A stretch of 64,000 nucleotides of DNA from Candidatus Heimdallarchaeum aukensis (GTDB lineage: Archaea > Asgardarchaeota > Heimdallarchaeia > Heimdallarchaeales > Heimdallarchaeaceae), in NCBI GenBank assembly GCA_021513695.1, contig CP084166.1:1568001-1632000 (forward strand), given 5' to 3'. The translations under genes and the position numbers were made by a program. Under the pieces are notes generated by a model. That model searched no databases and was not told where the DNA came from. It saw only the letters and a program-made list of their open reading frames with translations. Every line of letters begins with the position of its first letter. Position 1 is the first letter of the stretch. Shown one piece after another: positions 2,593 through 29,272 of this stretch.

Positions 2593-4575
2593 ATGAACAT
2601 GAGCAGAATTAATAGTCTTTATAAAATTGAAGGCAACAATTATAATAAATTAAAACATGAAAAGTATTCATTTATTACAGATAACAATTTTAGGGATAGT
2701 AATTATAAAGAAAAAATGAAACAAAAATTAAATAATAACCAGCTGAATAAAAAAATAAAATCAGAAATAAGTTTTGATGTGGTTTTTGATAAAGATTGGG
2801 TAATTAATGAATCAATTACAGTTGTAGGAAAAACTATATTACTAAAAGGAAATCTAATTGTAAACTCAACAGGGAATATCACAATAGAGAATTCAATTTT
2901 AATATTTAACTCTTCGTGGATAGTTAATAATGGAAATCTTGTAGAAGAAGCTTTACAGATTAGAATTCTTGGAGGTAAAACTATTTTTATTAATACTACA
3001 ATATCAGTTTTAGTTCCATTTGTAGAATTAAGTTATAATCAAATACGTAATAATTACTTTACGATAAGCGCAGAAAAATCTTCCCAGTTGTACTTTATAA
3101 ACAGCGAATTGAAACATTTAGGAATTATAGATAACATAAATAGTGGGATAAATGTTAACCAAATAAGTGAGTTAAAACTAGAAAATTGTAATATTAATGC
3201 ATTATGGGGAATTCTTTATGCTAATAATACAGACAGAATCGTAATCAATAATTGCAAATTAAACTCAAGCTTGAGGGGAGATATGAGATTTGGAACAAAT
3301 TATACCATGGTAACTCTAAATGGTGGAATTGAACATATAATTACACACAACAATTTCTTTAGAAATGAGGAAACAAAGTCTATAGAATATTCAGAAGAAA
3401 AAATAGACAGGCTTGTTATCTTGAATTCAAAGAACAGTATTATTTCAGAAAACACATTTAAACAAGCAAGATCTTATGATAATTCCTTTGGTCTAAATGT
3501 TAGAAACTGCACTTCAACGATAATTAATAACAATAAGGGACCATCAATGCACATGCATTTAAAAGATTCTAGAAATATTACAATAACACAAAATCACTTT
3601 GGGCAACTAATGGTTCATAATACCTGCGAATTGTTACTTAAATTCAACATAGCTGAAAATCTGGAACTCGCTAACTGTTCTTATATAAACGTCAATTACA
3701 ATATTTTTAATGCTACAAAGGAAAGAATCTATGATATAGGATCTTGCGTTTTTCTAATGGGTTCAAATGAATATATTAATATTTCATGTAACATTAATGC
3801 AGTACCTATTTTGGAAAGTTCATTTTATACAATAACAGCAGAAATAAAGAACAGTTTCTTTTATATGAATAATCAAGTTGGCCCCATATATATAAATGAT
3901 TATCCAGATTTCTATGAGAAAGTGTTTAATTTCTCAATAGAAAATAAAAGAGAAATAGTAATAGAATACCCAAAACTATCAGTAAATCAATATTACAGTT
4001 ATAACAGTCAAGGTAATTTCTATTCAGCCGATATACAAGCAAGTTTAGAAAATATATTAGAAGATTTTAACAACGATGGTATAGGAGATGCATCCTTTCC
4101 AGTATCGTCCGTTCCTATAATAATGGATGAAAATCCATTAATGTTCCCCATTACGTTTAATAATAATTTCGATCAAAAAGCCCCAACTCTTAATCATAAA
4201 AATTATTTTCCAGGGGGCGATAATTCTATTTATGATACCATCTATGCTAGTGTAACTGACAATTTTATGTTGGCTACAATTGTAGTAGCTTATGATTTAG
4301 GTTCATCTGGTTCATGGACTTTTAAGACTATGATAAAGGATGAATTTACAGGAGAATTTATTGCAAAAATTCCTAAATTGACACAAGGGATAAATCAATA
4401 CTACTTTATTGTATGTGATATTTTTGGTAACGAAGCGAAAAGCGAAATTTATACTTATAAGGTTCCAATTATTACTTCACAGATTTCATGGCAAATCTTG
4501 AATTCCTTTCTAGGAGTATTACTTTTGATTTTTTATCTGAAAAAAACTAAACTCAAAAGGGTTCAAAAATGTTAA
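2593..4575 (+). CDS. Cell-surface protein with parallel beta-helix (PbH1/NosD-like) repeats and a C-terminal TM anchor
   Basis: 660 aa, Asn-rich, with periodic short repeats (NxxIxN, IINNN, ITITQN) typical of right-handed beta-helix proteins. The C-terminal hydrophobic helix WQILNSFLGVLLLIFYL is followed by the basic tail KKTKLKR. A signal-peptide-like sequence lies in frame just upstream of the ATG (see findings). Confidence 0.6.
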   Translation: MNMSRINSLYKIEGNNYNKLKHEKYSFITDNNFRDSNYKEKMKQKLNNNQLNKKIKSEISFDVVFDKDWVINESITVVGKTILLKGNLIVNSTGNITIENSILIFNSSWIVNNGNLVEEALQIRILGGKTIFINTTISVLVPFVELSYNQIRNNYFTISAEKSSQLYFINSELKHLGIIDNINSGINVNQISELKLENCNINALWGILYANNTDRIVINNCKLNSSLRGDMRFGTNYTMVTLNGGIEHIITHNNFFRNEETKSIEYSEEKIDRLVILNSKNSIISENTFKQARSYDNSFGLNVRNCTSTIINNNKGPSMHMHLKDSRNITITQNHFGQLMVHNTCELLLKFNIAENLELANCSYINVNYNIFNATKERIYDIGSCVFLMGSNEYINISCNINAVPILESSFYTITAEIKNSFFYMNNQVGPIYINDYPDFYEKVFNFSIENKREIVIEYPKLSVNQYYSYNSQGNFYSADIQASLENILEDFNNDGIGDASFPVSSVPIIMDENPLMFPITFNNNFDQKAPTLNHKNYFPGGDNSIYDTIYASVTDNFMLATIVVAYDLGSSGSWTFKTMIKDEFTGEFIAKIPKLTQGINQYYFIVCDIFGNEAKSEIYTYKVPIITSQISWQILNSFLGVLLLIFYLKKTKLKRVQKC

Positions 4576-6123: not shown

Positions 6124-6606
6124 TTACACTATCCTTTGTTTTCCTCCAGGAGGATTAATGAAAAATACTGTTAATAGTAATAGAAATATCCCTACAGATT
6201 CCTTAAATGTTACATTATTTACAATGTCTTGTGGTAATCCTTCTCTAAAGGCTGTAATTGCCTGGAAGCCAAAAAACACTATAAAGAGTTGTATAAAGAA
6301 ATATAGTATAACTGTGATAAATGCTCCTCTTATTAGATATCTCAAAAGTTTTCTATCTTCAGCTCTTCTTACTCTACTTAACAAATAATCTGTTACTAAT
6401 AATGATGAAGCTGTTAACACTATTGCACCAAATAGTGGAAAAGCAATTACTAAGCTAATATATCCTACCTGATTTAGTTGCACAATTTCACTGAGATAAT
6501 AATAGTGTGGTAATTGTGCAATCATGGATATTCCAAATAAGATTAAAATACTAGGTAAAGCTGCTTCTTTGTTCCAAAATCTTGATTGTTCACTCATAGC
6601 TTTCAT
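6124..6606 (-). CDS. Hypothetical integral membrane protein (about 4 TM helices)
   Basis: 160-aa ORF with four long hydrophobic segments. No family recognised. The antisense ORF 6158-6388 was rejected. Confidence 0.45.
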   Translation of the reverse strand: MKAMSEQSRFWNKEAALPSILILFGISMIAQLPHYYYLSEIVQLNQVGYISLVIAFPLFGAIVLTASSLLVTDYLLSRVRRAEDRKLLRYLIRGAFITVILYFFIQLFIVFFGFQAITAFREGLPQDIVNNVTFKESVGIFLLLLTVFFINPPGGKQRIV

Positions 6607-6679
6607 TCCTTAACATTAGGGATGCTTTTGCTATAATCAACAGTGTTTTTTTTAACTTTTCTGTTCAAGTTTCTATTAG

Positions 6680-8311
6680 TTAATGCATATCTTCCTCAAA
6701 AGAATAACCTTTTTCTATTCTAAATTCGCAGTAATTGTATCCTGTTCCATGACATTTTGTTTCTGTAACAATTGGTGGGTCTTTCAGCAGTAATGCTAGT
6801 CTTCCTGCAATGTATCCTGAAGTGAAGTCACACAGCGTTTCACCTTTGCTTTCTCCATCTTCGGTAAGATTTATTCCAGAGGAATAGGCATTTTCATAGA
6901 TTCTAATGTACATTTCATCTTCGTCCTCCCCATCTATGACTTCAACAAAAGAATACTCTCTTTTTAGGATATTTGTAGGATGAGTGAGATAAAGTTTCAA
7001 GATTTCAACTGCTTTTTTTAGCGATTCGATAGGTAAACTTTCTTCTTCTAGTACATCGTAAATTATTGTTTTACCTGGTCCAATTACACCCAACTCTCTT
7101 CCTGCAGAGTATAGTAGAGCTCCACAGAATTTATCTCTGAACTTAAGTGACATTATCTGTTGTTGTAAGATGCTTATATGCACGTAATCCACGTCATTTG
7201 GTCGTAAAGCGTTAGTCATAAGTAAAGATTCAAATCCATTTTGACTTGTTTCATGAATTAGTTCAAAAAACATTTGCTTACGATATTCTGATTTCGGAAG
7301 ATCTCCTAAGTACTGAATGTTCTTTTTACTTTCATCAATTTCTTTTACTTTATATGGAGCTTTTCCTGGTTCTTTTCCTATATATACCTCAATCTCAAAT
7401 TCACAGTAAGGATCGCCAAGCCCTTTGCACTTTGTTTCCACAACAGATGTAGCAGAACCAGTCATTGCTTCAACCGTACCTGCAATTTTTCCTGCAGTAA
7501 AGTGACACAAAGGTTCTCCTACGTTAATTACTCCAGAAACAGTACAAAGATCATGAATTCTAAGTGTAGCCTTATAATTTTCAATACTTGCTATATCACA
7601 GTGAGTAGCTTGATAAATTGGAACATCGCTATTATGACTATACAATTTGGCTAATGCGATTAGAACTTCTTGAAAACGTTCTTCTGGATTTACAGCTTGA
7701 ACATTAGGATTAAGCACTGTTAGATAGTAAGGGTCTGCACCATAAATCCCTAATTCTCTTCCACTTTGATAAAGTAATTGAGGTACTAATGGGTCTAAAG
7801 CGAGTAATGATAAAACAACTTGCTGATATACGCTGATATGGCAATAATCCCCGATAGTTTTTCGAACAATATTCTGAGAAATGAGAGAAGAGATGGTATT
7901 TTTTGTAAGAACCATCATACTTTCTTTTCTCTGAGTTTTTTTATCAGAAGCTACCATCAAAGGAAGAATATGACTCCACAATTTGTCTTTGATATCGTCT
8001 TCAGTTATCATCCCTTGTGCAATTACGCTGTCATTCATCATAATAACAGGTACTGACATTACATTATATTGAGAAGCAATCTCAGGTTCCTCTGTTATGT
8101 CTACTTTTGTTACACTCACAAGATTTTTTAGAGAGGTCCCTGCTACTTGCTCTACAACATGTTCTACAGATGGGCACGCAAAACATGTAGGGCTTGTAAA
8201 TAGTAATAATCGAACCTTAGATTGCATTTCTTCTTCTGACATAGTAACCGCATTTACAAATTTCTTAATACTTATTATTCGTTTATATTGAAAAAGATTT
8301 CTTCGATGCAA
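6680..8311 (-). CDS. Thioredoxin/glutaredoxin-like domain fused to two V4R (4-vinyl reductase / Bet3-TRAPP-related) domains
   Basis: N-terminal LLLFTSPTCFACPSVEHVV (CxxC thioredoxin fold). There are two copies of the V4R C-terminal signature: LCHFTAGKIAGTVEAMTG...ETKCKGLGDPYCEFEIEV and LCDFTSGYIAGRLALLL...ETKCHGTGYNYCEFRIEKG. A more likely start is the internal Met at 8242 (MSEEEMQ...). Confidence 0.7.
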   Translation of the reverse strand: MHRRNLFQYKRIISIKKFVNAVTMSEEEMQSKVRLLLFTSPTCFACPSVEHVVEQVAGTSLKNLVSVTKVDITEEPEIASQYNVMSVPVIMMNDSVIAQGMITEDDIKDKLWSHILPLMVASDKKTQRKESMMVLTKNTISSLISQNIVRKTIGDYCHISVYQQVVLSLLALDPLVPQLLYQSGRELGIYGADPYYLTVLNPNVQAVNPEERFQEVLIALAKLYSHNSDVPIYQATHCDIASIENYKATLRIHDLCTVSGVINVGEPLCHFTAGKIAGTVEAMTGSATSVVETKCKGLGDPYCEFEIEVYIGKEPGKAPYKVKEIDESKKNIQYLGDLPKSEYRKQMFFELIHETSQNGFESLLMTNALRPNDVDYVHISILQQQIMSLKFRDKFCGALLYSAGRELGVIGPGKTIIYDVLEEESLPIESLKKAVEILKLYLTHPTNILKREYSFVEVIDGEDEDEMYIRIYENAYSSGINLTEDGESKGETLCDFTSGYIAGRLALLLKDPPIVTETKCHGTGYNYCEFRIEKGYSFEEDMH

Positions 8312-8488: not shown

Positions 8489-9694
8489 GTGACAGATATA
8501 ACCAAAATTGAACGAGTTGCAAAGTTGTTAAAAAGAGAAAGAAAACTGCGTCTAGCAAGATTAAATGATGTATATATGAGGCCTATTGAGGGTCCGACTG
8601 ATCGTCTTGTAACTAGCGAAAAAAAAGATTATATAATGTTAGGTAGCTATTCATATCTAGGTCTAATTAATCACCCAGAAATCAAAAAAGCAGCAAAAGA
8701 AGCTATTGATAAATATGGAACAGGGGCTGGAGGAGTAAGATTACTTACAGGAACACTGGATTTACACAAAAAACTTGAAAGAAAAATAGCTGAATTCAAG
8801 AATGCAGAGGATGCTGTAGTGTATTCAAGTGGTTATGTTACCAACGAAGCTATTTTATCTAGTATTTTTGGGAAAGGAGATCTTATTATTATTGACCGAT
8901 TTGCTCACGCAAGTATTTACAGTGGATGTACTCTTTCAAAAGCTGAATGGACAAGATTCCAACATAATGACATGGAAGATCTAGAAAGAGTTTTGAAAGA
9001 GAATAGAGAAAAATACGATAACATCGTTATTGCCGTCGATGGTGTTTACTCAATGGATGGAGATGTAGCTCATATGCCTGAAATTATCGAACTAGCAAAA
9101 GAATATGATGCTTTTACGATGGTTGATGAAGCACATGCCATTGGTGTTTTAGGTGAAACAGGAAGAGGAGTCGAAGAATATTTTGGATTGAAAAAAGATG
9201 ATATTGATATAAAAATGGGAACATTAAGTAAAGCCATTCCTTCTGTTGGCGGTTATATTACTGGAAAAAAAGAACTAATGACATTTTTAAGATACAGTTC
9301 TAATCCTTTTATTTTCTCCGCTGCTTTACCTCCACCTAGTGCTGCTGCAGCTTTAAAAGCTTTTGAAATCATAGAAAATGAACCAGAGCGAATAAAGCAG
9401 GTTCAGCATAATGCTAAAGAGTTCATAAAAGGTGTAAAAGAATTAGGCTTTGATACTCTAAAAAGCAAAGATACTGCCATTATTCCTGTTATTATAGGCC
9501 CAGAAGTAAAGACATTTCGCTTTGCACGAAAATTAGAAAAAGAAGGAATAATTGTTCCACCAGTCGTATATCCTGCTGTCCCTAGAGATGGGGGAAGATT
9601 AAGGTGCTGTGTAATGGCTACACATACAGAAGAAGACATGCAGAAAATACTAGAAAAATTTGAAAAAGTAGGAAAAGAATTAGAAGTAATATAA
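8489..9694 (+). CDS. PLP-dependent alpha-oxoamine synthase (8-amino-7-oxononanoate synthase / 2-amino-3-ketobutyrate CoA ligase / serine palmitoyltransferase family)
   Basis: 401 aa with family motifs: LGSYSYLGL, SGYVTNE, DEAHAIGVLGETGRG, and GTLSKA (PLP lysine). GTG start preceded by GGTGA. Confidence 0.85.
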   Translation: MTDITKIERVAKLLKRERKLRLARLNDVYMRPIEGPTDRLVTSEKKDYIMLGSYSYLGLINHPEIKKAAKEAIDKYGTGAGGVRLLTGTLDLHKKLERKIAEFKNAEDAVVYSSGYVTNEAILSSIFGKGDLIIIDRFAHASIYSGCTLSKAEWTRFQHNDMEDLERVLKENREKYDNIVIAVDGVYSMDGDVAHMPEIIELAKEYDAFTMVDEAHAIGVLGETGRGVEEYFGLKKDDIDIKMGTLSKAIPSVGGYITGKKELMTFLRYSSNPFIFSAALPPPSAAAALKAFEIIENEPERIKQVQHNAKEFIKGVKELGFDTLKSKDTAIIPVIIGPEVKTFRFARKLEKEGIIVPPVVYPAVPRDGGRLRCCVMATHTEEDMQKILEKFEKVGKELEVI

Positions 9695-10271
9695 ACTAAC
9701 TTTTTCTTTTCTTTAGTAATAAGTTCAGTCTACGTAAAGGAGAAGAAAAATTATTCCATTTTTTAAAGAATATACTACTTTCACCTTTTTAATTCAGATT
9801 GTAACTATCTGAATAAGCAAATAAAACAACTCCAATTGTGTTTCTAATAATTCTTCACATCTCTTTAGGTGCTTTAACACCAGTATGTCAGACATAAAAT
9901 AGGTAACAATTACAATGTCATCAATTATTAATACAGAATGGTATTTGTTATATTTCGAATTTTGCATATTAAAAAGGATTAAGTACGAAAAAATACATTT
10001 ACAAAAGACCTAATATTGACAAATGTTTTAATTGTGAAATACTGGATAACTAAAGAAAAAATCATAGAAAAACAAGAACATAATGAACTTAGTTACAAAT
10101 ATTTTTTTTATTGTAGATAACATTAGTAACGATCTAGTTACTACACAACTGGTATTTCAATGTGAGAAAAAAGTGAAAAGTATCTTTGTTTCTGTTATTT
10201 CAATTATTGAATTTGTTATCTTCATTAAACTAACTTGTAAAAAGCTCGAATATTAGAAAAAACAATTTAGT

Positions 10272-11138
10272 TTACACAAAAACTGATCGTAATTTGTAAA
10301 CTATACTAGAAAATGAAAGAACTTTTTTTCTACGAAGAATAGCTTCTCTTGTAAAAAGATCTACATAAGCAAAAAAACCATTTACTAAAGGACCAGGATT
10401 AATAAGCATAATATTTTTTTCAGTTTGAATAGCTTGTATTTCATGAATGTGCCCACAAAAAACAAAATCAAACAATAATGATTCAAAAATAAAAGAGGTG
10501 ATTTCTTGATTTCCTGCGTGATAGTTTCTTGAAGGAATTAGATCAATATGTGTATTCTTGGGGGGTTCATGGAAAAGACCAATAAATAGTTTATTTTCAT
10601 TCTTCTTTTTAAGAAGAAGAGCTTGTTCTTTTAGTTTAAGTAAATCTTTTCTTATAATGCTTATGTCTCTATTTGTAGGTGTTTGAACAGATGAGTATTC
10701 AGCTTTTTGGCAATACCCATACCCTAAAACAATAAATTTGTCATGCTCAACAATGCTTGATTCGATAAAAATTAAATTCGAATTTTGTTCTGTTTGTTTT
10801 TTAATATATGTAATTACTTCAGGAATATCTGTATTTCCGTGTGTAAAGAACACAGGTTTATTTAATCCACGCAGAAAATTCAGAATTTTCTTGGTTGTTT
10901 GTAATTGAAAATCAACAAATTCCTTATATTTTTCTCCAAATACAAGTTCCATGTATTTTTTTCTACTAATTCTTTTATATTTGATAATTGATTGAAAAAT
11001 AAGAGGTATACAAATAGTTCCTGCTATGTCTCCAGCAATAAAAATCACATCAACCTCTTCTAGTTCCTTTCTTAATCGTCTTAATAACTTTAATGACCCA
11101 TGAATATCCGCTATAACGATAGCTTTCAACTTACTCAC
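10272..11138 (-). CDS. Calcineurin-like metallophosphoesterase
   Basis: Metallophosphoesterase motif series DIHGS, GDIAG, HGNTD and CGHIH. It overlaps the hutH 3' end by 8 nt, so it is probably co-transcribed. Confidence 0.7.
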   Translation of the reverse strand: MSKLKAIVIADIHGSLKLLRRLRKELEEVDVIFIAGDIAGTICIPLIFQSIIKYKRISRKKYMELVFGEKYKEFVDFQLQTTKKILNFLRGLNKPVFFTHGNTDIPEVITYIKKQTEQNSNLIFIESSIVEHDKFIVLGYGYCQKAEYSSVQTPTNRDISIIRKDLLKLKEQALLLKKKNENKLFIGLFHEPPKNTHIDLIPSRNYHAGNQEITSFIFESLLFDFVFCGHIHEIQAIQTEKNIMLINPGPLVNGFFAYVDLFTREAILRRKKVLSFSSIVYKLRSVFV

Positions 11139-12663
11139 CAGAAATTGAGAGTAATTCTTCTTCTGTAAATTTTAGTAGGCCCCCTGTCTTTACTTGTTCA
11201 ATAACCCAATATACATCCTCATCATATCGTCTATCATTAGCAATAGGCGGTATTTTTTTTCTGATGTGATTATAGATTTTCATGTTCACTGGTGAGAGTT
11301 TTCTCTCTCCTCGAAATTCCAAAGCTTGACATGCAGTAAAAATTTCTATCGCAATCATTTGTGAGACTATATCTCTTATTTTGTAAACTTTTTTACTAGA
11401 AGTTAACCCCATACTTACATGGTCTTCTTGATCAGCTGAAACAGGTGTATTATCTATCGATGCAGGAGTGCTTAAAATTTTATTTTCTGCTGATAAAGCA
11501 GCGTCAGCATATTGAAGAATCATCAATCCAGAATTTAATCCTGGTTTCCCTGTTAAAAAGGCTGGAAGACCAGAAAGCGCGGTATTTAATAATTGATTAA
11601 CTCTTCTTTCAGATATTGTTCCTAATTCGGTTAAAGCAATAGAAAGAAAATCCATGACTAAAGAAATTGGTTCTCCATGAAAATTTCCACCAGAGAAAGC
11701 ATGGTTATGGTTTACTGAAATTAAAGGATTGTCAGTAGCAGAATTCATTTCTACTTCTACTACACTCTTTACATATCTAATAGTATCGAGAACTGCCCCA
11801 TGAACTTGAGGAGAACAACGTATAGAATAGGGATCTTGTACTCTCGGAGCTTTAATGTGTTCAATATCACTTCCTTTTATAAGTTTTAACACTGTATCAG
11901 CAAAGTCAGATTGCCCCTTATGTTTTCTATTTTGCATGATGAAAGGAGAAAAAGCATCAGTATTTCCATGAAGTGCTTCTAAAACTAAAGCAACCGCTAT
12001 AGCTGAATGTTTCAAAATATTTAAAGAATCATAAATCGTATGAGCTGCAAAAGAAGTAAGAACATGAGTACCATTAACTAAGGAAAGACCTTCTTTTGAT
12101 ACAGGTGAGATAGGTTCTAGCCCCAACTTTGCTAGAATTTCTTTGCCTGTTAAAATTTGATCATTGTATTTTACTTTTCCTTCTCCTATTAACACACTAG
12201 CAATATAGGATAAAGGAGCGAGATCACCACTTGCGCCTAAAGAACCAATGCTAGGAACCAGAGGAATAACGTTATTATTTACTAAATCCACATAAAGCTC
12301 GACAGTGGATAAACGTATTCCACTGCTACCTTTACAATAAGAATTAATCGCAATAACCATAGCTCCTTTAACTATTTCATCAGGAAGAAACTCACCAAAA
12401 CTTATGCTATGAGAACGAATAATATTTTCTTGTAACTGTGATTGCTCATTAATTGAAATAAGTACATTTGCTAGTTTTCCAAAACCTGTTGAGACACCGT
12501 AGATGGGATCGTTTTCGGCGATTAAATTTTCAATTGCATTACGTGATTCTCTTATTCTTTCTTTACTGTCATCACTTAGTCGGATTTTATATCCTTGTCT
12601 TGTTATTTTGATTAAATCGTTTATATTTAGAGAGTTTCCATTAAGGACAATAAAATTGCTCAT
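11131..12663 (-). CDS. hutH: Histidine ammonia-lyase
   Basis: 510 aa with the MIO-forming Ala-Ser-Gly signature in GSLGASGDLAPLSYIA. Aromatic ammonia-lyase family motifs are present throughout. Confidence 0.93.
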   Translation of the reverse strand: MSNFIVLNGNSLNINDLIKITRQGYKIRLSDDSKERIRESRNAIENLIAENDPIYGVSTGFGKLANVLISINEQSQLQENIIRSHSISFGEFLPDEIVKGAMVIAINSYCKGSSGIRLSTVELYVDLVNNNVIPLVPSIGSLGASGDLAPLSYIASVLIGEGKVKYNDQILTGKEILAKLGLEPISPVSKEGLSLVNGTHVLTSFAAHTIYDSLNILKHSAIAVALVLEALHGNTDAFSPFIMQNRKHKGQSDFADTVLKLIKGSDIEHIKAPRVQDPYSIRCSPQVHGAVLDTIRYVKSVVEVEMNSATDNPLISVNHNHAFSGGNFHGEPISLVMDFLSIALTELGTISERRVNQLLNTALSGLPAFLTGKPGLNSGLMILQYADAALSAENKILSTPASIDNTPVSADQEDHVSMGLTSSKKVYKIRDIVSQMIAIEIFTACQALEFRGERKLSPVNMKIYNHIRKKIPPIANDRRYDEDVYWVIEQVKTGGLLKFTEEELLSISGE

Positions 12664-14218: not shown

Positions 14219-15490
14219 ATGTTCCATGAAGAAAAAGAAGGAATTATTATTGCAAATATAGCTGAGCTTTTTTTAGGCGAAGTAAAAAAATATGAACCAT
14301 CTTATCCCAACGAGAAACCTGACGCTCTCGTTATAAAAAATGGAAAGATAGAAGCTATTGGTGAAACTGGGAGAATACTAGCTGACTACAATAGAACAGA
14401 TTATGAATATATTAATTGCAATAATGAACAGAGTGTTTGCCCAGGTTTTGTAGATTCCCACACACATCTTGTATTTGCTGGAAATAGATCCCATGAGCTA
14501 GAAATGAAAATTCAAGGAATAAGTTATAGTGAGATAGCTGCGAAAGGAGGAGGAATAAATTATACAGTTAGAGAGACTAGAAATGCATTAAAAAAAGAGT
14601 TGAAAGAAGCTGCATTAAAGGTATTAAATAAAATGTTATTACACGGAACAACAACTATTGAAGCAAAATCAGGATATGGATTAAACCACGAAAGTGAACT
14701 AAAAATATTGGAAGTAATTAATGAATTAAATGAAGAACATCCGATTGAGATAGTTCCAACATTTTTAGGCTGCCATATCAAACCTGAGGACTTCATGGGT
14801 AACACATATGAATACATCGAAACAATGATGTATTTGCTCCCTGAGATAAAGAGAAGAAATTTAGCTGAATATGTAGATATATGGACTGATTTAGGAGCAT
14901 TTACAGTAGAAGAATCAGAATTTTTCCTTAAAGAAGCAATAAAGCAGGGATTCAAAATAAGAGTTCATGCTGACGAAATGGACAATGTTGGAGCAGGAAT
15001 CATGGCTGCAAATCTGGGAGCAGTATCAGCAGATCATTTACTAAAATCGGAAGCTATAACTGCAGAAGCAATGGCAGAGAAAGAAGTTGTAGCAAATTTA
15101 TTACCAGGAACACCATTTGTTTTGATGAGTAAAAAATATGCTAATTATAGAATGTTTAGAGATGCAAATTGTACAGTTGCATTGAGCACCGATTTCAATC
15201 CCAATTGTTATATTCTAAACATGCAAACTATCCTAACACTGGGAACATATATGATGAAGATGACACCAAAAGAAGCTCTGAAAGCAGGAACATTTGGTGG
15301 AGCAAAAGCACTTAATAGAGAAAAAAGGATTGGATCTTTAGATCTAGGAATGCAAGCAGATGTCCTAATCTTAGACGTACCCTCAATAGACGATTTAGTT
15401 TATCAATTTGGAACAAATAATGTTTCAACAGTAATAAAGGAAGGAAAAATACTAGTAAAAGATAGAGAGATAGTTACAGAAACAAAATAA
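14219..15490 (+). CDS. hutI: Imidazolonepropionase
   Basis: 423 aa amidohydrolase fold. Metal-binding GFVDSHTHLVFAG, with later HADE and DH motifs. The overall pattern is typical of HutI. Confidence 0.88.
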   Translation: MFHEEKEGIIIANIAELFLGEVKKYEPSYPNEKPDALVIKNGKIEAIGETGRILADYNRTDYEYINCNNEQSVCPGFVDSHTHLVFAGNRSHELEMKIQGISYSEIAAKGGGINYTVRETRNALKKELKEAALKVLNKMLLHGTTTIEAKSGYGLNHESELKILEVINELNEEHPIEIVPTFLGCHIKPEDFMGNTYEYIETMMYLLPEIKRRNLAEYVDIWTDLGAFTVEESEFFLKEAIKQGFKIRVHADEMDNVGAGIMAANLGAVSADHLLKSEAITAEAMAEKEVVANLLPGTPFVLMSKKYANYRMFRDANCTVALSTDFNPNCYILNMQTILTLGTYMMKMTPKEALKAGTFGGAKALNREKRIGSLDLGMQADVLILDVPSIDDLVYQFGTNNVSTVIKEGKILVKDREIVTETK

Positions 15491-15833: not shown

Positions 15834-17498
15834 ATGTATGGGCAAGGCCAAGTACCAGTGATAGTCCTAAAAGAAGGAACAGAAAGGACAAAAGGAAAAG
15901 ATGCACAGAGAAATAACATAATGGCAGCACAAGTAGTAGCTGAAACAATTAAGACCACCCTAGGTCCAAAGGGTATGGATAAAATGCTCGTTGACGGGCT
16001 AGGAGATATTTTGATATCTAATGATGGTAAAACAATTCTTGACGAAATTGACGTCAAGCATCCTGCAGCAAAGATGATGGTTGAAGTAGCAAAAGCTCAA
16101 GACCAAGAAACAGGAGATGGTACCACTTCAAGTGTTACCCTTGCTGGAGAATTGCTAAAAAACGCTACTGATCTTTTAGACAAACAGATTCATCCTTCAA
16201 TAATTGTTGAAGGCTATAAAGCAGCTGCTGAAAAAGCTGAAGAGATCTTACAAGAATTAGCCAAGCAATTTGATCCTTTTGGCGATGAACAAATTCTGTT
16301 CAAGATTGCTAATACTTCATTAAACAGCAAATCTGTATCTGGCGCTAAAGAGCACATTGCTCAACTAGCAATTAACGCTGTAAAGAAGGTTGCAGATGAA
16401 GATAATGGCAATCATATCGTTGATCTTGATAACATTAAGATTTTACAAAAATCAGGTAAGAGTTTAGCCGAGTCTGAACTTATTGAAGGAGTAATTATTG
16501 ATAAAGAAGTTGTTCACCCTGGTATGCCAAAGCAAGTTAAAGAGGCAAAGATTCTTCTACTCAATCAAAACATTGAGATCGAAAAAGGAGAATTTGACAA
16601 AGAAATTAGAATTAGCGACCCTCTACAGATGCAAAGTTTCTTAGAAAATGAAGAAGCTATGTTAAGAGAGATGGTTGAGCAGATAGCTACTACAGGAGCC
16701 AATGTTTTAATCTGTCAGAAAGGAATCGATGACATGGCCCAATATTTCCTTGCAAAGAAGGGTATTATGGCTGTTCGTCGCGTTAAAAAATCTGACATGG
16801 AGAAACTTTCACGTGCTACAGGAGGAAAAGTAATTAGTAATTACAAAGACGCTAAAGCTGAGGATCTTGGCTATGCTGGACTAGTTGAAGAAGTCAAAAT
16901 TGGTGATGATGATCACGTTTTTGTTCGTGAATGTAAGAATCCTAAAAGCGTTTCTATTATTCTCCGTGGAGCTACAAAATACGTTACTGATGAAGCTGAA
17001 CGTGCTCTTCATGATGCTCTATGTGTAGCTCGTAATGCTGTTGAAGACAAAACCTATTTACCTGGTGGAGGAGCTACTTATCTTGAGCTTGCTAAACAGC
17101 TAAATGTTTTCGCTGAAGAGTTCAAAGACAAACGTCAAATGGCAGTTAAGGCTTTTGCTCAAGCTCTTGAGGTTATTCCTACCACTTTAATTGAAAATGC
17201 AGGTTTAGATCCTATTTCAATCATGAACGAATTAAAAGCTGCACATGCTTCTGAAAACGGTGTTTCTATGGGTCTAAATCTTTTTAAGAATGGTCAAGTT
17301 CTTGACATGTTTGCTGAAGGAATAATTGAACCTCTTCGAGTAGTTAGTCAAGCTGTTAAGTCAGCTTCTGAATCAGCTATAATGATTCTAAGAATCGATG
17401 ATGTAATTGTCGCTAAGGCTTCCTCTCCACAAGGTCCACCTGGCGGTGGTGGAATGGGCGGCATGGGCGGCATGGGCGGCATGCCTGGTATGATGTAA
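15834..17498 (+). CDS. ths: Thermosome subunit (group II chaperonin)
   Basis: 554 aa. Motifs: [11 protein letters not shown], the [11 protein letters not shown]-binding motif, and VPGGGA-type [10 protein letters not shown]. The C-terminal tail is [18 protein letters not shown]. Confidence 0.95.
17454..17480 (+). repeat. Tandem 9-bp repeat (ATGGGCGGC x3) encoding the chaperonin Gly-Gly-Met tail
   Basis: Three exact consecutive ATGGGCGGC units, flanked by degenerate copies, inside the thermosome 3' end. Confidence 0.9.
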
Positions 17499-18834: not shown

Positions 18835-19452
18835 GTGAGTAAAATGTTTGGAAACTTTATGAGATGGTTATTAGGAACTCAAAAATCAAGTAGAGACCAT
18901 ATAGTAAACCTTAAACTAACTATTCGCAGACTAGAAAGAGCTCAAAGGAAACTGGAGAGAGATGAATCAAGAATACAACTAAAAATGCGAACAGCTATTC
19001 AGCGTGGTGATTTAGAAGGTGCCCGTCTTTATGCTACAGATATTGTTCGTTCTCGTAAGTGGGTTTTAGGTTACCAGCGTTTAGTTTCTCGTATTAATGG
19101 TCTTATTTTTAAACTAGAACGAGCTGATTCTGCTGCTAACTTGGCAGCTGAAATGCATTCTATTGCAGGAGCTCTTCGACAAGCTAACGCTCAATTAAAT
19201 GTTCCTGATTTAGATCATGTTATTCAAGACATGGAACGTAGTATTGATGGAATTGAGGATTCAACTGAAACAATTGAAGATGGAATTGATGATCTTCTTA
19301 TTGCTGATACCGACCCAGCTGAAGTCGATAGGTTAATTGACCAAACAGCTACAGAGATGGGTGTTAGTGTAGGAGGAGAACTCCCTTCAGTAAGCGCTGT
19401 TGCAACAGACGATCTCGAGGAAGAGATTCAAAAATTAAGGAAAAAAGAGTAA
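18835..19452 (+). CDS. ESCRT-III, Vps2/24/46 (CHMP1-3)-like Snf7-family protein
   Basis: By-eye alignment to CHMP2: ARLYATDIVRSRKWV vs VRIMAKDLVRTRRYV, and MGVSVGGELPSVS vs LGLSLTDELSNLPS. The C-terminal MIM-like DLEEEIQKLRKKE matches DLEERLKNLRRD. Confidence 0.85.
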   Translation: MSKMFGNFMRWLLGTQKSSRDHIVNLKLTIRRLERAQRKLERDESRIQLKMRTAIQRGDLEGARLYATDIVRSRKWVLGYQRLVSRINGLIFKLERADSAANLAAEMHSIAGALRQANAQLNVPDLDHVIQDMERSIDGIEDSTETIEDGIDDLLIADTDPAEVDRLIDQTATEMGVSVGGELPSVSAVATDDLEEEIQKLRKKE

Positions 19453-19456
19453 ATAT

Positions 19457-19462
19457 GAGGTG
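19457..19462 (+). promoter_or_regulatory. Shine-Dalgarno-like GAGGTG before the second ESCRT-III gene
   Basis: GAGGTG lies 5 nt upstream of the ATG at 19468, and only 15 nt separate the two ESCRT-III genes. Confidence 0.45.
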
Positions 19463-19467
19463 TTTAT

Positions 19468-20127
19468 ATGGGTATGAAAAACTGGTTATTTGGAACCAAA
19501 CGCAAGGATGATGCTGAAGCTTTAGCTACACTCAAAGCTCAGATCAATCGATATGAGCACGAGTCCCGCAATTTAGAACGTCAAGCTGATGAACAAAAAT
19601 CTTTAGCTGCTAAGATGTTAAAGTCGGGTAATAAAGCTGGAGCTAAACAAGCTCTTAAGCGTCGAGCTATTTATATGAAACGTTTAAATCAGGTTCAAAA
19701 TATGCTAATGAACCTTCAGAGTCAGATTGATAGTATTCAAACTGCAACCTCTACTGTTGAAACAGTAAAGGCAATGGAGTTAGGTACGAAAGTTGTCAAG
19801 ACGAAGATGCAAGAAGTTGATGTAGAGAAAACTGAACGTGTAATGGATGAAGTTATGAGTCAACGTGATGAAATTGAAATGATGACAGAAGCTTTATCTG
19901 ATACTGCACTAAGTGAGAGCATTTTAGATTACGAAGATGATGTCGCAATTGATGATCAACTTGCTCAATTAGAAGCCGAGATGAATCTTGGTAAAACAGA
20001 AGAATTACCAGATCTTTCAGATCTTCCTTCAACTCCATCAGAAAAACCGACTGAAAAAGAAGAAGATACTTCTGACCTTGAAGCCGAATTAGCTTCTCTT
20101 AAGAAGAAGTTAAGTGATGACAAATAA
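19468..20127 (+). CDS. ESCRT-III, Vps20/32/60 (Snf7/CHMP4)-like protein
   Basis: AKQALKRRAIYMKRLNQVQNMLMNLQSQIDSIQTA aligns by eye with CHMP4 ALQALKRKKRYEKQLAQIDGTLSTIEFQREALENA. The C-terminus is acidic with a terminal amphipathic helix (DLEAELASLKKKL). Confidence 0.85.
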   Translation: MGMKNWLFGTKRKDDAEALATLKAQINRYEHESRNLERQADEQKSLAAKMLKSGNKAGAKQALKRRAIYMKRLNQVQNMLMNLQSQIDSIQTATSTVETVKAMELGTKVVKTKMQEVDVEKTERVMDEVMSQRDEIEMMTEALSDTALSESILDYEDDVAIDDQLAQLEAEMNLGKTEELPDLSDLPSTPSEKPTEKEEDTSDLEAELASLKKKLSDDK

Positions 20128-20254
20128 TAATAATCAAATTCTTTTTTCAATTCTTTTTTTCATCATTTTAGAAACGAACAGTTTTTTAACGATAATGATG
20201 TTACTAGTTTAGTAATTCAATTAATAGGATTATTCAGTTAGAGAGGTTAAAGAA

Positions 20255-21400
20255 TTGAGCGCGCAAGGACTGATTGAACACGCACGTAAATTTGCAAAAA
20301 AAGCTTATGAACTTGATAAGGCAAAACAATACAATGAGGCAATACCACTTTATCTCGACGCTGCAGAAGCTCTAATGAAAGCAATAAAATTTGAAAGAAA
20401 TCCACAAGTGGGAAAGACATTAAAGAAAAAAGCAGAGATGTACATTGAACGAGCAAAAGATCTAAAAGAAATTATTGAGAAAAAAGCTGAAAAGGGGGCA
20501 GAAACAGGGTCAGACGAAGAATCTGATAAATTAGAAGGAGCAATTAGCGATATCATAGTTACAGAAAAGCCATCAGTTACTTTGGATGATATTGCAGGAC
20601 TAGAAGAAGCAAAACGGAATCTTCGAGAAGCAATAGTGTTACCTCTTGTAAGACCAGACTTATTTAGTGGTGCAAGAAGACCATGGAAAGGGATTTTACT
20701 TTTTGGCCCCCCAGGATGTGGAAAAACTCTTTTAGCAAAAGCAACAGCTGCAGAAGTAGAAGCTACGTTTTTTAATGTTAGTGCGTCCGCGGTTATATCC
20801 AAATGGTTAGGAGAATCTGAAAAATTAGTTAATACATTATTTAAAATTGCTCGTGAAAGGCAACCAAGTATAATTTTCATAGATGAAGTAGATGCTCTTA
20901 CCGGAGCACGTGGTGGCGAGCATGATGCTATGCGCAGAGTTAAAACTGAATTATTAACTTCTATGGATGGTTTATCTAGCTCTGCTCAAGATCGTCTTGT
21001 AGTTATTGGGGCTACTAACCTTCCTGAGTCTATTGATGGAGCTTTTCGCCGTCGTTTTGAGCGTCGTATTTACATTAAGCTTCCAGATTTTGAAGCGCGT
21101 AAAGCTATCTTTCAACTAAATGTCAAAGGAGTGGACTTAGCTCCCGATGTTGATTTTGAATCTTTAGCAGAGATTACAGAAGGTTATTCTGGAGCAGATA
21201 TTGCTATGGTTTGTCGCGATGCTATTATGACTCCTATTCGTGAACTTGATTTATCAGGAGACATTCATGACCCCAATATTAAAGCCAGACCAGTTACACA
21301 AAAAGATTTTCTTGAGTCTATTCAGTCAGTTAATCCTTCTGTAAGTGCAGAAGAAATCGAGAAATATGAGAAATGGAATGAAGAATTTGGTTCAGCGTAA
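20255..21400 (+). CDS. vps4: Vps4-like AAA+ ATPase with N-terminal MIT domain
   Basis: MIT-like helices AKKAYELDKAKQYNEAIPLYLDAAEALMKAIKFERNP. Walker A GPPGCGKT and Walker B IIFIDEVD. The C-terminal helix EEIEKYEKWNEEFG matches the Vps4 pattern. TTG start preceded by GAGAGGT. Confidence 0.95.
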   Translation: MSAQGLIEHARKFAKKAYELDKAKQYNEAIPLYLDAAEALMKAIKFERNPQVGKTLKKKAEMYIERAKDLKEIIEKKAEKGAETGSDEESDKLEGAISDIIVTEKPSVTLDDIAGLEEAKRNLREAIVLPLVRPDLFSGARRPWKGILLFGPPGCGKTLLAKATAAEVEATFFNVSASAVISKWLGESEKLVNTLFKIARERQPSIIFIDEVDALTGARGGEHDAMRRVKTELLTSMDGLSSSAQDRLVVIGATNLPESIDGAFRRRFERRIYIKLPDFEARKAIFQLNVKGVDLAPDVDFESLAEITEGYSGADIAMVCRDAIMTPIRELDLSGDIHDPNIKARPVTQKDFLESIQSVNPSVSAEEIEKYEKWNEEFGSA

Positions 21401-21412
21401 AAGGGTGTTTTT

Positions 21413-21433
21413 ATGATTTACCTTTTTACGTAA
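21413..21433. repeat. Left terminal inverted repeat of element B
   Basis: ATGATTTACCTTTTTACGTAA. The reverse complement of 23311-23331 is ATGATTTACTATTTTACATAA. Confidence 0.7.
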
Positions 21434-21707
21434 GTTTTTCGCACTCGGTCTTTCAAGGGAGAAAACAGGAGTTTCATCACTTGATAACTCAACCACAACA
21501 TACAATGAAAGGAAACGTGGTTAAGACAGACGTCATACACGAATCGTGGGAATCATAAAGAAGGAAAAGAAAAAAGTAAGAAAGGAGAAAAGAAAGGAGG
21601 TTATCTCCTTCTTTATTCTACTTTCTTTTCTTTCCTTCACTCCACGAGAGACGAAAAAACAAACAAATAATCCTCTAACAAGAGAGAATGTAAGTTTATA
21701 TTTTCAT
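21413..21707 (-). ncRNA. Candidate omega-RNA/reRNA scaffold of element B (decayed copy)
   Basis: The non-coding stretch between the tnpB stop and the element end shares conserved blocks with copy A. The CTTAACC/GGTTGAG helix at 21488-94/21519-25 stays paired only in the tnpB-sense RNA, through a U-G wobble. Confidence 0.3.
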
Positions 21708-23161
21708 CTACTGGGGCTGCAACCAATGGCTGAGCCCTTGGCAAACAGTGAAATGAGTGAGACTAAATTTACGACCAGTGAGTAGATCAGTAATAGTTGT
21801 TGCACGGGGGCGGAAAAGAGAACTAAGGAGCAGACGAGCGATATTCATTGCTCCTGTTAGATCAGAGTGGAAGGTGTAATTGCAAGAGGGACAATAAACT
21901 AACCCTCTAACGGGGCGGGTAACTTTTTTTCCGCAACGGGCACAGTGAGATGATGTTCCTCTTTCCTCTATCGTCAGAATTCGGTGAGAGGGAAAACCTC
22001 TAAGTATTAGTGCACGACGGATAAAAGAAAGAACAAGAGCATAGTTCCACTGGTGAAGTTTTCTTCGTGACTTGCGATTAGTTACTCCCTTATTTTTTTC
22101 TCGTCGAATGTATTTAGGATAACCTATAACAACGAAAAGATTATAGATCCGAGCATAAACCTCTATTGTCCACACGATAGCACTTACAAATTGATTGATA
22201 TACGCTCGTCTGACGTTTCTATACCTCCGACGGAGACGTTTGAGAAAACGGTAAACTTGGTGTTTTTTACCCGATTGGTCGTTTAAAGCTGCTTTCCTCT
22301 GAAGACGGGAAAGTTTGAGTTTATATCGATGATTAACTTTATTCCACTGTTTGGTATACTAGAACTTTATTTCTTTACTTGTTACCTTCTTTTTCGGGGT
22401 CAGTAGCACTTCTACCGCAGGAATGTTTATCCCTAGATCTATTCCCAGCACAGCTGGGGGAAGAAAAGAAGAGTCAGAAGAAAGATTATCTCCCTGAAGG
22501 AAAGAAGAAGGAAGAACTTTTGAATGAAAATATATCCACCATTCACGTGTAGAACGTTTGTATCTTATTTCTAAACTTTTTACTCTTTCTTTAATTCTTT
22601 TTGATGAAACTCGCTCATCTCTAAAGGTAACCACAATCGCTGATGAAAACGTGTTTTTCTTTTCCACCTATCTAACGAGTCTCGTATTCCTACCCACCAA
22701 CGAGAAAGAGTGTTATTCTTATCTTTTGGTAGATGGACGAGGATGAACCTTTTTTTATTAATTAATTGTCTTCTTGCTCTCTTTCTTGGAGGACGAGTAT
22801 TGTTAGGTCTATATCCTTGCTCATATAGTTGCACAGCTATATCTCTACATTCTTGAAACTCATCGTGAGAACAATAGGGAAACATTTTCTTCATATCGTG
22901 AGGAACAGTCGTTCTTCTTTCTTCCTCTTTTTTTACTCTCGAGGTCGTTAATGTCAATTCGTCTAATTTTCCTTTATGTACTTTTATTTTCCCTTCTTTT
23001 GCTTTAATACCTATTTTTTTTCTGTTATGGTGTATAATTCTCACATACTTTTCTATTATTCTAGTATCTCTCCCCGTTATTCTCCTTAACTTTTCTTTTT
23101 TTCTCGTCGTCAATACTTCATTCTTCACTCTCACCTTTAACGTTTTGACGACGTCCTCCAT
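21708..23161 (-). pseudogene. tnpB: tnpB pseudogene (frameshift plus premature stop)
   Basis: Three track ORFs (22580-23161, 22359-22667, 21708-22175) together reproduce the 484-aa copy-A protein. There is an indel near 22585-22595 relative to copy A. TGG became TAG at 22359-22361 (KFWYTKQ in A, KF*YTKQ here). Confidence 0.85.
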
Positions 23162-23310
23162 CCTTTTTTTCTCCTCTTATTTTACTCTCTCTTTTTTTCT
23201 ATTTTTTTCTCTTCTTTTACTTCTTCTCTTCCTCATTATACTTTTTTTCCCTATAAAAAGTCCTTTCTTTTCTTTTTTTCTCATTATTCTTCCTCAATTT
23301 TTATATAAAG

Positions 23311-23331
23311 TTATGTAAAATAGTAAATCAT
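23311..23331. repeat. Right terminal inverted repeat of element B
   Basis: See 21413-21433. The terminal ..TCAT abuts a G, so the first ATG of the next ORF (23330) is built from the element end. Confidence 0.7.
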
Positions 23332-24130
23332 GGCTACAATGGAAAAACAAAAAGATAATGAATTTGAGCAAATTGATCTTGAAAAATTGAAAGAAGAAAA
23401 GAAAATATCAGAAGATAAGCTTAAGCTTATTGAAGCCAGTATTAAGGGATTAAAAGTTTCAGAAGAAGAACTGAAGTCCACGAAACCTATTGTTAGAGAA
23501 GAAGCAAGATTAGAACTAACAGAAGACACAAAGACGAAGCTAATTAAAGAATTTGAGCAAAGTTTACCTGATTGGGTTAACAAGCCTTGGATGTATGTCA
23601 CCCCAAAAAAGGCAAATCAAGTTGAGTCTTGGTTAGACAGTTGGTCATCAGTCATGCTTGATTATACAAAGAAATTTGTTATTCATATTGTTAATGTCAA
23701 TTCTCTTAGAGAAACTTATCCTTTTTGTAATAAGAAAATAAGAAAAGAACTTACCATCGATCAAATTCGTGATATCATCGATTTTCTTGAAACAAAGGGT
23801 TTTGCTCTTTGGATAAATGATAGGACAAAATTCTTTGAGAAACTTTTTGCAAAGATACTTGGAAAACCTTTAACAAAAAAGATCCGTGCAAAGATAGAAT
23901 GGAAAACAAAAGAAGAATTTGCTGAAGATTTACTTAAATGGATGATTGAAACCGGTAGAGTAGTTGAAGTTCACTCTTTATATGATTTAACAAAATATGA
24001 ACAACCCTGGTCTTCTTTACCTTCAGATGATTTAATCCATGTATGCAATTTACTCGTAGAAAAAGGTTCTGCTAGATGGTTAAATAGAGAAAGAACTATA
24101 ATTTCCTTTGAAGCAACAAAGGTATTCTAA
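23330..24130 (+). CDS. Vps25-like ESCRT-II subunit (two winged-helix domains) with a charged N-terminal extension
   Basis: The C-terminal 170 aa align by eye with human EAP20/Vps25: VESWLDSWSSVMLDYTKKF vs QLAAWCSLVLSFCRLH, DIIDFLETKGFALWIND vs VLEELRKKGNLEWLDK, and WKTKEEFAEDLLKWMIETGRVVEVHSLYDL vs WRRPEEWGKLIYQWVSRSGQNNSVFTLYEL. The native start may be the ATG at 23339. Confidence 0.7.
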   Translation: MATMEKQKDNEFEQIDLEKLKEEKKISEDKLKLIEASIKGLKVSEEELKSTKPIVREEARLELTEDTKTKLIKEFEQSLPDWVNKPWMYVTPKKANQVESWLDSWSSVMLDYTKKFVIHIVNVNSLRETYPFCNKKIRKELTIDQIRDIIDFLETKGFALWINDRTKFFEKLFAKILGKPLTKKIRAKIEWKTKEEFAEDLLKWMIETGRVVEVHSLYDLTKYEQPWSSLPSDDLIHVCNLLVEKGSARWLNRERTIISFEATKVF

Positions 24131-28729: not shown

Positions 28730-29272
28730 TTACTTTCTATTTTTGACTAAAAGTGTAGCTAGTTTCACAAATGCTTCTTGAACATGTTCTCCTGTAAGTG
28801 CACTTGTTTTTATGAAATCCAAACTATTGATTTTGTTTTGTAATGATTTACATTCATCATCTGATACAGCAATTTTATCTTCTAAATCATTTTTATTTCC
28901 AACTAAGATGGTAAGGGTGTTCTTTCCACAGTTTTTAACAAGTTCAGAGTTCCATTTCTCTAGATCAGTTAGTGTTGAATTCCTGGTTAAATCGAAAACC
29001 ATCAGTGCTGCTTTTGCTCCTTTAAAGAAAGTATGTCTTATAAACCTAAATCTATCTTGTCCTGCTAGATCCCAAATTGAAAGAGCTACAACTGTATTGT
29101 CCTCTAATGTAACAAATTTCTCACTCGGTTCCATACCTATTGTCATCAGATAACTTTGTTCAAAACGATTATGAACAAAACGTTGTACAAGAGATGTCTT
29201 TCCTACAGCGGCGGCACCTAATAGAAGTATTTTGAAATTGAAATCAGGACGAATTGAACGCATTATTCTCAA
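28730..29272 (-). CDS. Rab/Ras-like small GTPase
   Basis: G1 GAAAVGKTS, G3 WDLAGQD, G4 GNKND and G5 TSAL. By eye it aligns end to end with Rab-type GTPases. There is no C-terminal Cys prenylation motif. The likely start is the ATG at 29263 (MRSIRPDF...). Confidence 0.9.
   Translation of the reverse strand: MRIMRSIRPDFNFKILLLGAAAVGKTSLVQRFVHNRFEQSYLMTIGMEPSEKFVTLEDNTVVALSIWDLAGQDRFRFIRHTFFKGAKAALMVFDLTRNSTLTDLEKWNSELVKNCGKNTLTILVGNKNDLEDKIAVSDDECKSLQNKINSLDFIKTSALTGEHVQEAFVKLATLLVKNRK

Follow-up and report, generated by a model that had tools for sequence, protein, structure and literature searches.

What does a thioredoxin do when it is joined, in a single chain, to two V4R domains? The question is raised by one gene in a stretch of 64,000 nucleotides from Candidatus Heimdallarchaeum aukensis (contig CP084166.1, positions 1,568,001 to 1,632,000). 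This whole stretch is called the window below, and coordinates are given in its own numbering unless another locus is named. An earlier note on the window had described the product as a thioredoxin (Trx) domain followed by two V4R domains, and this three-domain call is correct by Pfam, with each V4R half also passing the cut-off alone. The Trx-V4R-V4R protein belongs to a conserved family of Heimdallarchaeia, and what is new in it is the fusion – the single domains and the tandem V4R core are already known elsewhere.

The coding sequence lies on the minus strand at 6680-8242 and encodes 520 amino acids, with an ATG start at 8240-8242 and the stop codon at 6680-6682. It was defined from the open reading frame (ORF), its translation, the N-termini of homologues and Pfam. 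The gene had been given an extent of 6680-8311. The minus-strand ORF over that span is indeed single, with no interruption, but 8311 corresponds to the first TTG of the longest possible ORF, and the real start is at 8242. The N-termini of all homologues coincide with this ATG (MSEEEMQSK...; MSEEEMQSKVRLLLFTSPTCFACP...), and a putative TATA-like box read from the sequence, AATATAAA on the coding strand (8282-8289, minus strand), stands 40-47 nt 5' of the ATG and thus within the TTG-extended part of the ORF. For these reasons the coding sequence was taken as 6680-8242, and the TTG start at 8311 was dropped. The GC content near the gene is ~0.33, resembling the remainder of the window.

The N-terminal domain (residues ~8-90; 7973-8221, minus strand) has the thioredoxin fold and is of the MJ0307/protein disulfide oxidoreductase (PDO) type. 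A CxxC thioredoxin-like N-terminus (TCFACP) had been proposed from the translation, and it was borne out. Pfam Thioredoxin_3 (PF13192) matches residues 17-86 with 42.1 bits against a cut-off of 24.8 (E 9e-11), Pfam Thioredoxin (PF00085) matches with 33.9 bits against a cut-off of 23.5, and both the active-site CFAC (residues 20-23; 8174-8185) and a cis-proline (P65) are present. The family profile matches the MJ0307 thioredoxin in the PDB (1fo5, E 1.8e-14) and also the protein disulfide oxidoreductases 1j08 and 1a8l. The MJ0307-family equivalog model TIGR00411 scores 54.9 bits, below its threshold of 92.75, which places the domain as a relative of the MJ0307 family and not as an equivalog. Residue conservation was counted over 70 full-length family members. 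All 67 members whose sequences include the N-terminus keep the two cysteines of the CxxC (C20/C23), and 68 of 70 keep P65; the inner two residues are free to vary, with 27 different variants across the family. With an invariant CxxC and the cis-proline, the domain is apparently active, and thioredoxin activity is its expected function.

The remainder of the protein consists of the two V4R units. Pfam V4R (PF02830/COG1719; cut-off 31 bits) matches the whole protein in two stretches that sum to 95 bits. Scanned singly, the halves (residues 100-292 and 318-513) score 54.7 and 45.2 bits, and the alpha/beta V4R/Bet3 fold was found. Unit 1 covers residues ~103-290 (7373-7936, minus strand) and unit 2 residues ~317-513 (6704-7294, minus strand). 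The flexible linker between them (residues ~291-316; 7295-7372, minus strand) differs in length across the family. In profile searches of the PDB each half matches MJ1460 (2osd/2oso; E 1.6e-6 for unit 2), PoxR and MopR. Both units are complete, as the earlier note had claimed, and the signature C-x-F-x-x-G...C-x-G-x-G-x-x-x-C-E-F can be read in each – C246-HFTAG ... C272-KGLGDPY-C280-EF in unit 1 and C471-DFTSG ... C497-HGTGYNY-C505-EF in unit 2.

Alignment indicates that the two units arose through internal duplication. The halves align with each other over 180 columns (hhalign probability 100, E 1e-44), and the duplication spans the whole ~180 residues of each half, beyond the 60-residue Pfam core. 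At its N-terminus each unit has a long helix, then a short strand and another helix, and these elements bear a family-specific and near-invariant motif: R-x3-G-D-Y-x-H-x4-Q in unit 1 (R127-x3-GDY-x-H135-x4-Q140) and R...H-x4-Q-Q in unit 2 (R347 ... H355-x4-Q360-Q361). V4R units have two Gly-x3-Gly helix-packing motifs each (Podar 2008). The pairs here are G161/G165 and G251/G255 in unit 1 and G381/G385 and G476/G480 in unit 2, and each of the four is conserved in 66-69 of 70 members.

V4R is related to the Bet3-family subunits of TRAPP, and on this ground the protein had been placed among Asgard eukaryotic signature proteins. This framing was overstated. Neither V4R half has a match to Pfam TRAPP (PF04051) at E<=10, and the PDB profile searches with either half returned no TRAPPC3/Bet3 or Thor-TRAPPC3 chain at E<=10. 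Orthology to TRAPPC3 was dropped on these sequence grounds, with MJ1460, PoxR and MopR matched instead. By sequence the units are ordinary V4R domains of the prokaryotic type. V4R is widespread in bacteria and archaea, and the protein is therefore no eukaryotic signature protein in the strict sense.

Both units contain the arrangement Cys-x22-Glu-x2-Cys-x7-Cys, formed by C246/E269/C272/C280 in unit 1 (7403-7507) and C471/E494/C497/C505 in unit 2 (6728-6832). The spacing equals that of the XylR ligands C149/E172/C175/C183 (bioRxiv 10.1101/2021.01.17.427014) and of MopR C155/E178/C181/C189, of which the three cysteines are named in PMC9556785 and E178 is taken from the profile alignment. In the profile searches the Cys/Glu/Cys/Cys ligands of both units align with the ligands of PoxR and MopR. 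The bioRxiv paper describes zinc binding at this V4R site as shown for PoxR, MopR and DmpR, and PMC10933270 describes zinc at the equivalent place in Thor-TRAPPC3, held by four cysteines. Within the family, E269 and C272 are kept in 70 of 70 members; C246 is replaced seven times, always by Asp, and C280 once, also by Asp. Replacement by Asp alone, together with the invariant E269 and C272, supports a metal-ligand pattern. Very probably the first role of the V4R cysteines is zinc binding, which is predicted for each unit.

The conserved cysteines had been proposed to be ligand- or redox-regulated. This claim needs correction in that they are first of all zinc ligands; redox regulation is a reasonable hypothesis, by analogy with MsvR. 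Residues C206/C232/C240 of MaMsvR have the spacing of C246/C272/C280, and mutations in them change redox-dependent DNA binding (PMC3729527). Oxidised MsvR is re-reduced by the thioredoxin system of Methanosarcina acetivorans, according to a review (PMC7278568, citing Sheehan 2015).

A full-length AlphaFold2 (AF2) model was built from a 28-sequence family alignment and has a mean predicted local distance difference test (pLDDT) of 81.6 and a predicted template modelling score (pTM) of 0.82. An AF2 model of the tandem alone reached a pTM of 0.88 despite the ~25-residue linker at pLDDT ~60, and for this reason the packing of unit against unit can be called confidently predicted. The model makes it likely that the two units form an intramolecular pseudo-dimer within a single chain. 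Among V4R/Bet3 proteins, PoxR, Thor-TRAPPC3 and Bet3-Trs33 are described as two-fold dimers joined via N-terminal helices. In a fold comparison against the PDB no chain covers both V4R units, and the highest query-normalised TM-score is 0.29. By homology, each unit would enclose a cavity in which a small and probably hydrophobic ligand could sit. A helical tether (residues ~91-120; 7883-7972, minus strand; a lower-confidence prediction) leads from the Trx domain to unit 1. The tether helices at 81-98 and 103-120 have pLDDT 62-72 in AF2, and the model suggests that the thioredoxin is joined flexibly.

The architecture is no one-off. An indexed search of 5.8 billion proteins found 49 full-length Trx+V4R proteins, ranging from 99 % down to 30 % identity, and all named members of this set are from Heimdallarchaeota or Asgard metagenome-assembled genomes (MAGs). 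A scan of GTDB, with each species represented by one genome, gave 53 loci, essentially all in Heimdall-type Asgard archaea, with a few bearing other submitter labels. An exhaustive hidden Markov model (HMM) search of 1.84 billion cluster representatives gave only 43 proteins at E<=1e-30, and ~30 of these are full-length. The architecture occurs in ~50 Heimdallarchaeial species, mostly at one locus per genome, and these searches point to a small, lineage-restricted family. The gene in the window is a genuine single gene, as had been supposed. Its ORF is unbroken, it has the 49 full-length homologues, and the loci found across GTDB species include the closed chromosome CP084167.1 of Candidatus Heimdallarchaeum endolithica PR6, to which the gene is 99 % identical.

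One distant relative lies outside this group. The protein P0219, from a Hydrothermarchaeota MAG, is full length, with a Trx domain (CVYC) and a pair of V4R units, and aligns over 437 columns at hhalign probability 99.2. It is ~23 % identical, with Asp and not Cys as the third zinc ligand of its unit 1. Either horizontal transfer or an earlier origin of the Trx-V4R-V4R architecture could account for it.

Tandem V4R without thioredoxin is common in other archaea, as found in the same HMM search of cluster representatives. Sibling architectures include V4Rx2 alone (Aenigmarchaeota, 366 aa), Zn-ribbon-V4Rx2 (Altiarchaeales, ~417 aa) and KaiC-like ATPase-V4Rx2 (~585 aa, metagenomic). Proteins of these sibling architectures are P0050-P0053, P0161, P0090 and P0093. 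From these domain combinations V4Rx2 appears as a portable module, and it is the thioredoxin fusion that defines the Heimdall family. Database labels for these proteins are generic: 'V4R domain-containing protein', 'thioredoxin family protein' or 'predicted hydrocarbon binding protein'. Full-text searches for V4R with thioredoxin and for V4R with Asgard found no paper describing a thioredoxin-V4R fusion, in agreement with the remark in the earlier note that the architecture was not recognised as a described one. The word 'thioredoxin' is absent from the accessible text of the only study found on the structure of TRAPPC3/V4R proteins from Asgard archaea.

The neighbourhoods of the gene were compared by clustering the ORFs of all fetched loci, which fall into clades that include clade A (~70 % identity, including the window) and clade B (~40 %). 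In clade B, 13 of 13 loci have a gene for a PrxQ/BCP peroxiredoxin whose start, preceded by a GGAG motif, lies 10-45 nt past the stop codon of Trx-V4R2. Its product matches AhpC-TSA at E 2e-32 and has the motif GCTAEAC (for example at 9540-10022 of locus L003). The clade-B arrangement looks like a bicistronic operon of Trx-V4R2 and PrxQ. Beyond PrxQ there are genes for a phosphatidylserine synthase, sometimes a phosphatidylserine decarboxylase, and a KaiC-like ATPase.

The neighbours in clade A are others. Directly downstream of Trx-V4R2 on the same strand, in all 27 clade-A loci with a downstream flank, is a gene for an orphan membrane protein (160 aa, ~4 transmembrane segments, cysteine-free), which in the window is found at 6124-6606 (minus strand), 3' of the Trx-V4R2 gene across a 73-nt gap. 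It has no significant Pfam match and just three homologues in the indexed search. The clade-A gap before the 160-aa gene contains a conserved element like a B-recognition element (BRE)/TATA box (…AAAAAGTTATAACTTAAC…), and runs of five or more T follow the Trx-V4R2 stop in 22 of the 27 loci. The 160-aa gene therefore probably has its own promoter, and an operon of the two genes in clade A was rejected, their co-transcription being doubtful. In 25 clade-A loci, though not in the window, a thermosome gene adjoins Trx-V4R2 divergently. The thermosome (Cpn60/TCP-1) gene of the window has been rearranged to a place 7.6 kb away (15834-17498, plus strand) and encodes a C-terminal GGM-repeat tail.

The reading preferred here is that of a redox-linked V4R sensor/effector that serves thiol-redox or peroxide defence, and not vesicle trafficking. 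Its chance of being right is put at about even. The product is taken, with the same balanced odds for and against, to be a soluble cytoplasmic thiol-redox protein. An MJ0307-type thioredoxin would be tethered by helices to a zinc-stabilised, single-chain V4R pseudo-dimer. The V4R pair would be the sensing or regulatory module, answering ligand occupancy, oxidation of the zinc thiolates, or both, and the thioredoxin would be the effector, handing reducing equivalents to client proteins. Control of the thioredoxin by the V4R pair is suggested by two analogies: in XylR/DmpR the V4R A-domain controls an ATPase fused to it, and in MsvR the cysteines of V4R control a fused helix-turn-helix (HTH) domain. 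The most concrete candidate client is the PrxQ/BCP peroxiredoxin that appears to be co-transcribed in clade B, to which the Trx domain would pass electrons, and the likeliest physiological role would be defence against peroxide and oxidative stress in Heimdallarchaeia; both choices follow from the clade-B operon. The thermosome gene beside the 25 clade-A loci was counted as further, stress-gene support. For the orthologue in the window, a role in peroxide defence is inferred by orthology alone.

Several observations weigh against this reading. No peroxiredoxin is encoded beside the gene or anywhere within the 64-kb window, and the other clades examined share no neighbour gene. The neighbour in the clade of the window is a cysteine-free membrane protein, with a promoter that is probably its own. 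No thioredoxin reductase was found near the Trx-V4R2 gene. The placement of the Trx domain relative to the V4R pair is also predicted by AF2 at lower confidence.

The same cysteines could act in another way. In the manner of MsvR, Hsp33 or RsrA, the V4R clusters could themselves sense an oxidant, release zinc and form disulfides, and the fused thioredoxin would re-reduce them in cis, resetting the switch. The output would then be a conformational change read by a partner, with no electron transfer to a client. An enzyme fused to its own substrate domain is a classic Rosetta-stone pattern, and the V4R cysteines are positionally equal to C206/C232/C240 of MaMsvR, which are reducible by thioredoxin. 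Unit 2 retains all three of its cysteines in 64-65 of 68-70 members. Unit 1, however, tolerates Cys-to-Asp replacements in several clades, which is a better fit to structural metal binding, and the site in PoxR, MopR and DmpR is described as structural. The tight operon with PrxQ in clade B indicates an external client, and neither an output domain nor a conserved partner has been recognised. A self-resetting switch is given roughly one chance in five, and it is the likeliest of the alternatives.

A lipid could also be the ligand. The protein would then be a carrier or presenter of hydrophobic ligands in membrane homeostasis, with a lipid or lipid hydroperoxide in the V4R cavities, as Bet3 holds palmitate, and the thioredoxin (with PrxQ where present) would reduce or repair the ligand. 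V4R/Bet3 cavities take hydrophobic ligands – phenols in PoxR and palmitate in TRAPPC3. In the genome, the clade-B operon runs on into phosphatidylserine synthase and at some loci phosphatidylserine decarboxylase, and the conserved clade-A neighbour is a membrane protein. BCP/PrxQ enzymes take organic and lipid hydroperoxides. The adjoining lipid genes may, however, be mere housekeeping neighbours, and the Trx-V4R-V4R protein itself has no membrane anchor. On balance this role is unlikely.

A bolder proposal can also be made. The protein could be an ancestral Heimdallarchaeial single-chain pseudo-heterodimer of the Bet3 kind, under thiol-redox control, that couples the state of a hydrophobic, membrane-derived ligand in its V4R cavities to peroxide defence or to membrane remodelling linked to ESCRT (endosomal sorting complex required for transport). 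If true, the archaeal lineage nearest to eukaryotes would have a prokaryotic relative of the TRAPP core dimer that is gated by redox state. This is judged quite improbable.

A further alternative is a TRAPP-like trafficking or ESCRT-associated scaffold, of the eukaryotic-signature kind. The single chain, a Bet3-like pseudo-heterodimer, would work with small GTPases, roadblock proteins or ESCRT when membranes are remodelled. The window contains an Asgard ESCRT cluster (18835-24130), ~10.6 kb from the Trx-V4R2 gene, which consists of two Snf7/ESCRT-III genes (18835-19452 and 19468-20127), Vps4 (20255-21400, with MIT, AAA and Vps4_C domains) and an ESCRT-II/Vps25-like gene (23330-24130). In locus L001 (80 % identity) a Snf7 pair lies 248 bp upstream of Trx-V4R2 (locus positions 6457-7753), and in locus L048 (37 % identity) a Snf7x2-Vps4-ESCRT-II cluster begins ~1.4 kb downstream (locus positions 8574-12010). 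In four clade-C loci a Roadblock/LC7 gene is divergent to Trx-V4R2, and in locus L007 a small GTPase gene adjoins it.

General linkage to ESCRT was rejected, being limited to L001, L048 and, loosely, the window. ESCRT genes are missing from the +-10 kb around a typical clade-A locus and from the 6 kb around the gene in clade B. The proximity is taken as synteny of the region, and any functional meaning is weak at best. Asgard genomes abound in GTPase and roadblock genes, which makes adjacency weak evidence. Neither V4R half matched TRAPP/Bet3 profiles or chains, prokaryotic V4R proteins were matched instead, no longin gene was seen beside Trx-V4R2 in the loci inspected, and no TRAPPC1-4 partner is linked to it. 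A scaffold would also leave the thioredoxin domain without a role. This alternative is disfavoured and very improbable. Last, an artefactual fusion of separate thioredoxin and V4R genes, in assembly or annotation, is ruled out for practical purposes by the continuous ORF, the 49 homologues, the 53 loci and the conserved linker helices.

The window contains other features of interest. Two genes read as belonging to histidine utilisation lie on the flanks of the region and are syntenic with Trx-V4R2 across clade A: a histidine ammonia-lyase-type aromatic amino-acid lyase (11131-12663, minus strand) and an amidohydrolase read as imidazolonepropionase-like, for which Pfam gives a general Amidohydro_1/3 assignment (14219-15490, plus strand). 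In locus L007 a urocanase gene is found near Trx-V4R2. A TnpB/Cas12f-like fragment of 155 aa with a TNB domain (21708-22175, minus strand) is found between Vps4 and the ESCRT-II gene. Typical Asgard eukaryote-like genes in the window are a Ras/Arf/RagA-like small GTPase (28730-29272, minus strand) and a Roadblock/LC7 protein (39867-40247, plus strand). A 660-aa Asn/Ile-rich protein (2593-4575, plus strand) with a hydrophobic C-terminal segment has no Pfam match and may be a surface protein. A tRNA scan of the window found none. The sole Rfam match, to the C/D-box family SNORD36 (19239-19313, plus strand; 31.9 bits, E 0.38), falls inside the first Snf7 coding sequence and is probably due to chance.

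The fusion is of interest as a clue, of the Rosetta-stone type, to a joint function of thioredoxin and the cysteine/zinc site of V4R. Previously the link between thioredoxin and V4R was based solely on in-vitro work with MsvR of methanogens. The family is also a compact test case for what V4R senses, with two units per chain, a built-in redox partner and, in clade B, a peroxiredoxin. Among archaea, Heimdallarchaeia stand closest to eukaryotes, and the V4R fold is also that of the TRAPP core subunits; the family may therefore bear on how the duplication of V4R units led to Bet3-type hetero-dimers. If the ordinary reading is true, it is a lineage-specific oxidative-stress protein, helpful for annotation and not transformative.

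Each part of the protein has counterparts in known systems. The MJ0307-type thioredoxin, the PDO proteins and the N-terminal domain of AhpF have, like the domain here, a small thioredoxin fold with a CxxC and a cis-proline, but two V4R units as the partner domain are without precedent for a thioredoxin. AhpF with AhpC resembles clade B, where the gene of a larger protein with a thioredoxin-fold domain likewise adjoins that of a peroxiredoxin; the flavoprotein reductase module of AhpF is absent from the Trx-V4R-V4R protein. The archaeal V4Rx2 proteins share the colinear tandem core, including the R..GDY.H motif, and one of them, P0103, aligns over profile positions 106-490. They differ in having another N-terminal module or none and in coming from other lineages, and all are uncharacterised.

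The dimeric V4R/Bet3 proteins are a further comparison. Thor-TRAPPC3 (7YH2/7YH3) and Bet3-Trs33 (TRAPPC3/C6) have no detectable sequence relationship to the units here. Thor-TRAPPC3 uses four cysteines at its metal site, while Bet3 is without a zinc site and is placed in the TRAPP complex with longin subunits. Unlike the Bet3-Trs33 dimer, both units here are in one chain, with a thioredoxin attached. The A-domains of XylR, DmpR, MopR and PoxR are parts of sigma-54 activators of bacteria that also have AAA+ and HTH domains and, as homodimers, sense phenols or xylenes; the Trx-V4R-V4R protein has a covalent tandem in place of the homodimer, and its fused effector is a thioredoxin.

A further counterpart on the redox side is MsvR, a methanogen-specific regulator whose V4R domain has the three conserved cysteines at identical spacing; they govern a redox-dependent activity, and a thioredoxin system reduces them. 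The NCBIfam MsvR model (NF053755) scores 56.4 bits against a cut-off of 220, over the V4R part alone; the HTH is absent, and the protein is therefore not a member of that family. MsvR has an N-terminal HTH and a single V4R, is a homodimer, and is served by a thioredoxin in trans, whereas the Trx-V4R-V4R protein has no DNA-binding domain, carries its V4R units in tandem, and has its thioredoxin fused to them.

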